Shown here: in pieces, positions 8,674 through 9,845 of the stretch
Layout of the letters: every line of letters begins with the position of its first letter
How positions within the stretch are numbered: position 1 is the first letter of the stretch
Virus record (IMG/VR): IMGVR_UViG_2562617113_000010
Source of the DNA: a virus
Taxonomy: Duplodnaviria; Heunggongvirae; Uroviricota; Caudoviricetes
Direction: 5' to 3' (one strand)
DNA length: 12,174 nt
The notes under the pieces: model-generated
What the model was told of the DNA's origin: nothing
Seen by the model: the letters and a program-made list of their open reading frames with translations, nothing else
The model's database searches: none
Position numbers and translations under genes: made by a program

Positions 8674-9845
8674 TTACGCGCTGACCTGGCTGGAGAAATT
8701 AACCAGGTACTGATCGGTGATGCGCTGACGCAGCATCAGGTTTTCAAGTGGCGGCACTGGCGTGTAGTCGTAGTCGATGGTGAGCTTCCCGGCTTTCAGC
8801 GTGTCTTTGTCGTTCACCGACTCATCCAGCCAGCAATCACCACCAATGAGATAGCCCTGACTGACCAGGCTGCGTATTTTGGCGCGGATACCTCGATAAT
8901 GTCGCGGGCCAGCGACGGGTTAAGCGGTTTATCCACCGCCCACATGTGTGCTTCTGCCATCGTGTCCATGAGCACCTGCGCCGTGCGGGTGTAGTTTTCG
9001 AAGGCAAAGAGTGGGTCATCACTCAGGCAGCGGGAACCCCAGAAGCGGAAGCCGTCTTTACGCACAAGTGTGGTGACGTCGTTCTGGTTCAGCAGACCTG
9101 CATCGGTTGCCGGGTCCTGCAGATCCCAGAACACATCTGCAGAAACTCCGGTGACACCGTTCACGCCCACGTTGGACAGGCTTTTGTGCCACCCGGTCTG
9201 CTCATCAATTTTGGCGCGCAGACCGAGCGCACGAGCGGTGGCATATGCCGTTGCTTCGGCATTCAGCACCGTGTCCCAGCCAGTAAAGTCAGGCCAGATC
9301 AGCATCCCTTCGCGCTGGCTGAAGTTTTCTCGGTAAGTGATCGCCTCCTGCACTGTTTTGCAGCCATACGCTGACAGGTAAGCAAACCCACGCAGGCTTT
9401 GCGCCACGCTCAGCAACTCAGTCGCAACGGCTTTGTTATCGTGACCTGGCACGCCGAGAATGCGCGGTTTAACGCCGAGCTGTGACTGGGCAGATAACAG
9501 AGCTTTCATGCCAGTTTTTTTACCTTCAGCAGTCACTGCGCCGATGATATTGGTCGTGGTTTCTTCTTCCGTTTCACCCTGCGGCACACGCACAACAACG
9601 GTCACGGGTTTTGCCTGGTCAGCGATGGCATCCAGCGAACGGGCCAGCGTGCCGGACTCACCCGCTTTACCGCTGGCAGTCAGCACATCAGTGATCAGCA
9701 CGGGTTTATTAAGAGGAAACATTTTTGCATCGGCATCATCGCCCGTGCAGACCATACCCACGATGGCGGTGCTCACCGTGGTAATGGATCGGGTGCCTTC
9801 GTTGACTTCAACAACGCGCACTCCGTGGTGGTAATCCTGAGCCAT
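8674..9845 (-). pseudogene. FI: Tail sheath protein FI, interrupted by a 1-nt frameshift near 8890-8894 (genuine pseudogene or homopolymer sequencing error)
   Basis: ATG at 9843-9845 opens a 343-aa ORF that is sheath-like up to ...LARDIIE and then runs into unrelated sequence with a stop at 8814. A second frame open from 8919 to 8677 encodes [72 protein letters not shown], matching the recalled P2 FI C-terminus (..[35 protein letters not shown]..), and stops 9 bp before the FII start. The frames join if plus-strand CC at 8891-8892 is read as CCC, giving about 392 aa. Confidence 0.75.

Follow-up and report, generated by a model that had tools for sequence, protein, structure and literature searches.

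The window analyzed here, by which we mean the whole stretch of 12,174 nucleotides, is the entire contig AHZD02000036.1 from the draft genome of E. coli O157:H43 strain T22 (GCA_000247665.4), read as its reverse complement. The match to the NCBI contig is exact, which rules out that the window was altered, whether by design or by accident, relative to the public record. On the minus strand lies a sheath gene of the kind ordinarily found in P2-family (Peduoviridae) prophages, but as deposited it is spread over two reading frames. The features on which the analysis draws are as follows.

8674-9845, minus strand: sheath gene, with a span of 1172 nt, which is no multiple of 3
9845..8814, minus strand: called ORF of 343 aa (ORF list and translation)
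8892..9845, minus strand: sheath residues 1-318 in frame A (translation, Pfam, and tblastn of P2 FI in frame -2)
8814..8891, minus strand: 25 nonsense residues and a stop (8816-8814), the out-of-frame tail of the 343-aa ORF
8892-8677 (72 codons) plus TAA at 8676-8674, minus strand: sheath residues 319-390 in the -1 frame, referred to as frame B
8892..8893: site of the missing base, ACCTCG in the window versus ACCTTCG or ACCCTCG in relatives
8149..8664, minus strand: tail tube gene, FII-like, 171 aa (PF04985, Phage_tube)
9922..9939: TGT-N12-ACA dyad, with its center about 85 nt before the ATG of the sheath gene (pattern search)
81..85, plus strand: 3' end of grxA, with A5 in the window versus A4 in E. 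coli A38 and XH988
3255..3258, minus strand: C/G run of gpD, with C4 in the window versus C5 in A38

In the annotation of the contig the gene appears as two pieces, ENO06988.1, a "major tail sheath protein" of 343 aa, and an adjacent 47-aa ORF with a GTG start at 8674-8817. The 343-aa ORF contains the Gp18_domIII_N domain (43.6 bits; Pfam cut-off, 27) and the subtilisin-like Phage_sheath_1 domain (114.3 bits; cut-off, 31.4), and positions 1 to 46 of Phage_sheath_1C match its residues 275 to 318 in frame A at 24.4 bits, under the cut-off of 26.9. The remainder of this last domain, positions 47 to 104, is found in frame B, such that no single frame of the deposited sequence holds it complete; across 8814..8891 it is frame B that shows homology in both Pfam and tblastn, while frame A shows none. 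A tblastn search with P2 FI likewise returned two high-scoring segment pairs, one in frame -2 (9836-8874; P2 residues 3-329) and one in frame -1 (8892-8677; P2 residues 324-395). Insertion of one base at 8892/8893 yields a clean ORF of 390 aa in which Phage_sheath_1C positions 1 to 104 align at 80.9 bits, the repaired gene being that of A38.

A preliminary description of this DNA, made from the letters alone, had proposed that two frames each carry a sheath-like segment, and the split of the Pfam domain at residue 318/319 bears this out, as does the tblastn search with P2 FI that it had suggested as a check, in which the two segment pairs abut at 8892. Its figures for the second frame, 81 codons with a stop 9 bp ahead of FII, are also correct: starting at 8919, frame B runs through exactly 81 codons before it reaches its TAA (8676-8674), and the gap from this TAA to the tube gene ATG at 8664 is 9 nt (TAAGGGGACAACATG). 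The miscall by automated annotation that it foresaw is what we observe in ENO06988.1 and its 47-aa neighbor.

The tube gene directly follows the sheath gene, as in the order of the F operon, and the repaired protein aligns over its full length with P2 gpFI (NP_046778.1), which occupies the same operon position, at 67% amino acid identity. The repaired sheath has 390 aa versus 396 aa in gpFI and represents a related lineage rather than P2 itself. The P2 FI to which the preliminary description refers is a relative, and the corresponding prophage of strain A38 is 186-like or Elveevirus-like with CI, CII, and Fil. That prophage is complete, lies between ybjL and rcdA (A38 positions 3183000-3206000), has 186-like regulation (CI, CII, Fil, and a DinI-like protein), and carries no cdt operon. 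The operon order in the window (sheath, tube, E/E', tape measure, U, D, and ogr) is common to the A38 prophage and to Elveevirus/186-like Peduoviridae, and the repaired sheath gene has 97.3% nucleotide identity to that of Escherichia phage Cartapus (Elveevirus). The protein also has end-to-end sequence homology to the R-type pyocin sheath PA0622 (3J9Q; query residues 5-383 versus chain residues 3-381, E = 1.1e-68); the R-type pyocin is a headless bacteriocin, whereas the nearest relative of the T22 gene belongs to a complete prophage, that of A38.

Because the A38 counterpart lacks cdt genes, the prophage in the window is probably not the P2-like prophage that carries CDT-V in an O157:H43 strain, and the CDT-V P2-like prophage of T22 is presumably a second element elsewhere in the genome. 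Svab et al. reportedly described the latter in 2013 (AEM) at another locus (cpxP-fieF), and T22 is said to be the strain behind a non-inducible entry for such a prophage. That entry stands in a review, which tabulates the CDT-V P2-like prophage of an O157:H43 strain as non-inducible.

Two further elements of the late region have counterparts in P2. The dyad at 9922..9939 follows a pattern that we take to be the Ogr/Delta consensus and is a putative site here; its position matches that of the P2 Ogr activator site in the F-operon late promoter, which is centered 83 nt before the FI ATG, but the TGT-N12-ACA pattern occurs 6 times in the window and is thus weak evidence by itself. A TTTTTTG motif on the minus strand (7831-7837), near the 3' end of a gpE-like ORF (7792-8094) and followed by an E' ORF (7658-7777), corresponds to the annotated programmed -1 frameshift of the E/E+E' tail chaperone pair in P2.

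The nature of the lesion can be judged from an alignment over all 12,174 bases with the nearest complete genome, that of E. coli A38 (NZ_CP028738.1). The two sequences differ by 0 substitutions and by three single-base run-length indels, located in grxA, gpD, and the sheath gene. On the coding strand the window reads ATC GAG GTA TC at the sheath site versus ATC GAA GGT ATC in relatives, with codon 318 read as GAG at 8894-8892 in the window and as GAA or GAG in relatives. The plus-strand sequence ACCTTCG is found at this site in alignments with A38, LF82, XH988, 2014C-3061, phage Cartapus, and Klebsiella phage KP12, while N39 has ACCCTCG, a synonymous variant (GAG GGT). Since A38 and most aligned relatives read ACCTTC, the lost base is most likely the T of a TT on the plus strand (the A of GAA) rather than a C/G, as far as these comparisons indicate. 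Repair with T and repair with C give an identical 390-aa protein, and the T-repaired gene is 100% identical in DNA to that of A38, which encodes WP_001407105.1; the deposited gene is simply one base short of it. The preliminary description had placed a deletion in a C-run at 8890-8894, but these positions read ACCTC and contain merely CC. Its proposal to read this CC as CCC fared better, as it does give a clean join and matches an allele that exists in N39, but the likeliest missing base is a T/A rather than a C.

The other two indels differ in where the error appears to lie. The extra base in the grxA run is also absent from N39, and it changes the C terminus of the product from ...VKENLDA* to ...VKEKSGRLIV*; with the contig end about 85 nt away, this too is very probably a run-length error. 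In gpD the situation is reversed: with C4 the gene in the window is intact and encodes 366 aa, whereas the C5 version in A38 is annotated as "frameshifted" in RefSeq, and alignments of the window with XH988 and N39, in both of which gpD is annotated as intact, report no gap at this run. The C5 run is thus probably a homopolymer error of A38's own assembly. About 250 substitutions in 10.6 kb set XH988 and N39 apart from the window, and the grxA and sheath indels are the sole indels that separate either of them from its first 10 kb, which makes these two changes private to the T22 draft. The suggestion that the sheath lesion is of the same type as the grxA shift holds in this respect, both being single-base run-length changes confined to that draft. 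Divergence of this locus among relatives thus consists entirely of substitutions with essentially no indels, whereas the T22-specific differences are indels alone; judged from these alignments, indels unaccompanied by substitutions are the signature of base-calling error and not of evolution.

We searched for the same lesion in other genomes at several levels. A 101-bp probe centered on the site was compared with 5,426 complete E. coli genomes and recovered 697 records, none of which matched it free of gaps; the best reached 99.0% with one gap. Among the full-length homologs, all 57 that we sampled at even intervals between 99.9% and 90.6% identity are 1173 bp long. An exact-protein look-up across about 15 billion proteins and 153 billion gene positions placed the 390-aa product on 46 contigs (NCBI, ENA, and Logan) and the 343-aa product on a single contig, AHZD02000036.1 itself. 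Neither the complete E. coli genomes nor the exact-protein look-up thus yielded the same lesion in an independent assembly or a clonal relative, which leaves a genuine pseudogene unsupported but does not disprove it. The idea that related prophages might share the truncation as a stable alternative form finds no match in the probe search or in the uniform 1173-bp length of the sampled homologs. We also found no signs of relaxed selection in the window, which has 0 substitutions relative to A38 over 12.2 kb and in which the other phage genes are intact.

Ion Torrent miscalls run lengths as 454 does. The T22 draft was produced from SOLiD V4 mate pairs, Ion Torrent PGM reads (233,333 reads with a mean of 161 nt, about 7.6x), and 454 Titanium reads (73,764 reads with a mean of 619 nt, about 9x), and read trimming and assembly were manual (PMC3668004). 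Hundreds of false frameshift pseudogenes have been documented in Ion Torrent assemblies (PMC3917457). For T22, 5,587 genes were predicted on 4.96 Mb of chromosome (PMC3668004), versus 4,749 annotated features on 4.86 Mb in A38; this would amount to an excess of roughly 740 gene calls, or about one per 6 to 7 kb, and appears to fit pervasive false frameshifts at a density near that of this contig, where two private indels occur in 12 kb. A later study that reuses the T22 genome does so without comment on assembly quality (PMC5039186).

Taken together, these comparisons make it highly probable that the sheath frameshift is a sequencing or assembly artefact and that the gene is intact in the organism. 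In such a scenario a run-length under-call in the hybrid draft of SOLiD, low-coverage Ion Torrent PGM, and 454 data would have led to the loss of one base, turning TT into T on the plus strand at 8893 and GAA GGT into GAGGT on the coding strand, and the annotation pipeline would then have cut the gene into the 343-aa protein and the 47-aa ORF. The use of flow-based platforms, the differences of T1 versus T2, A5 versus A4, and C4 versus C5, and the 0 substitutions are all as expected of run-length errors, and the preliminary description's own alternative of an error is supported in that the lesion is a run-length change private to a draft from platforms prone to homopolymer error. With the false frameshift pseudogenes of Ion Torrent and 454 drafts the sheath gene shares a private single-base indel, a background of other pure indels, and an inflated gene count, but it differs from them in that the run has just two bases and is known from the consensus alone. 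Some observations speak against an artefact: under-calls are less frequent at a 2-mer such as TT than at long homopolymers, the assembly also drew on SOLiD mate-pair reads at about 140x, from which a correction might have been expected, and defective P2-like prophages are plausible in the T22 background, given the non-inducible CDT-V entry of the review. The presence of the base in the real T22 chromosome is something that we infer from sequence comparison rather than show.

A real and very recent single-base deletion in T22, which would cut the sheath after residue 318 and leave the prophage defective unless complemented, is in our judgment unlikely. The lesion is present in the deposited sequence and frameshift decay of prophages is common; moreover, the 72 residues that would be missing align to residues ~317-381 of the R-type pyocin sheath PA0622 (3J9Q, E = 1e-68), a part that we take to supply the C-terminal strand of the inter-subunit mesh, and with this strand gone the loss would be inactivating. 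The sheath would lose its C-terminal arm along with half of the C-terminal domain, and no polymerized contractile sheath could form. Such a deletion has no accompanying substitutions, however, and over the 72 codons downstream the DNA matches an intact allele exactly; the absence of decay downstream means that the event, if real, must be very recent. The presence of a second private indel in these 12 kb, in the core gene grxA, the error-prone platforms with low flow-based coverage, and the absence of the lesion from every other genome or assembly searched weigh against it as well. It is accordingly doubtful that the 186-like prophage of T22 has been freshly "grounded," possibly with complementation in trans by a second (CDT-V) P2-like prophage, and we found no independent evidence in support of the earlier claim that the prophage is defective and cannot make a contractile sheath.

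We find two other explanations extremely improbable. One holds that the two-frame layout is functional, with full-length sheath produced by a -1 ribosomal slip or by transcriptional slippage, for example at CCA AAA T (8882-8876). Frame B does need a -1 shift, an A_AAA motif lies inside the overlap zone 8919-8817, and the same operon contains a real case of -1 frameshifting (E/E+E', with TTTTTTG at 7837), but no X XXY YYZ heptamer occurs in 8919-8817, where the junction reads ATC GAG GTA, and homology switches frame at residue 318/319 and not at the A4 run. All relatives examined, including 57 of the 57 sampled homologs of 1173 bp, use a single frame, and a tail requires a couple of hundred sheath copies, beyond what rare slippage could provide. 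We rejected programmed -1 frameshifting on the basis of the heptamer scan, the point at which homology switches, and the single-frame relatives. The other explanation, in which the manual assembly derived a consensus error from mixed reads of two P2-like prophages (this one and the CDT-V prophage) instead of from a flow-space under-call, likewise receives almost no weight from us. CDT-V has been reported in T22 (PMC3668004), the review tabulates it on a P2-like prophage for an O157:H43 strain, the lack of cdt genes in the A38 counterpart implies that T22 probably has a second P2-like element, and the contig is a short one whose end falls within phage DNA; yet the contig otherwise follows A38 base for base, and a collapsed repeat should have introduced substitutions too.

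The sheath frameshift is thus almost certainly not a real feature, but the product of mis-sequencing and mis-annotation of an ordinary intact gene. The value of this lies chiefly in curation: in draft AHZD02, ENO06988.1 and the 47-aa ORF next to it should be flagged as an annotation artefact and the 3' end of grxA on the same contig as suspect, and the "frameshifted" gpD of the A38 RefSeq record, probably an assembly error, deserves a flag as well. Judgments of the intactness or inducibility of T22 prophages that are drawn from AHZD02 would be misleading. Were the lesion real, it would add one more decayed prophage and be unremarkable.

The first letter of the contig falls within grxA, a single-copy core gene, and its last within phage DNA; that a core gene free of repeats should be broken in this way suggests patchy coverage or an effect of manual assembly. 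Upstream of the sheath gene lies a Gin/Cin-type DNA invertase on the minus strand (9988-10554), and the region 9988-12174 continues from this gene into opposed gp53-like tail-fiber tips and tail-fiber assembly genes, an arrangement that constitutes an invertible host-range segment. We identified no convincing outer inverted repeats of this segment in the contig; its last gene is cut at 12174, and the contig probably ends inside the segment.
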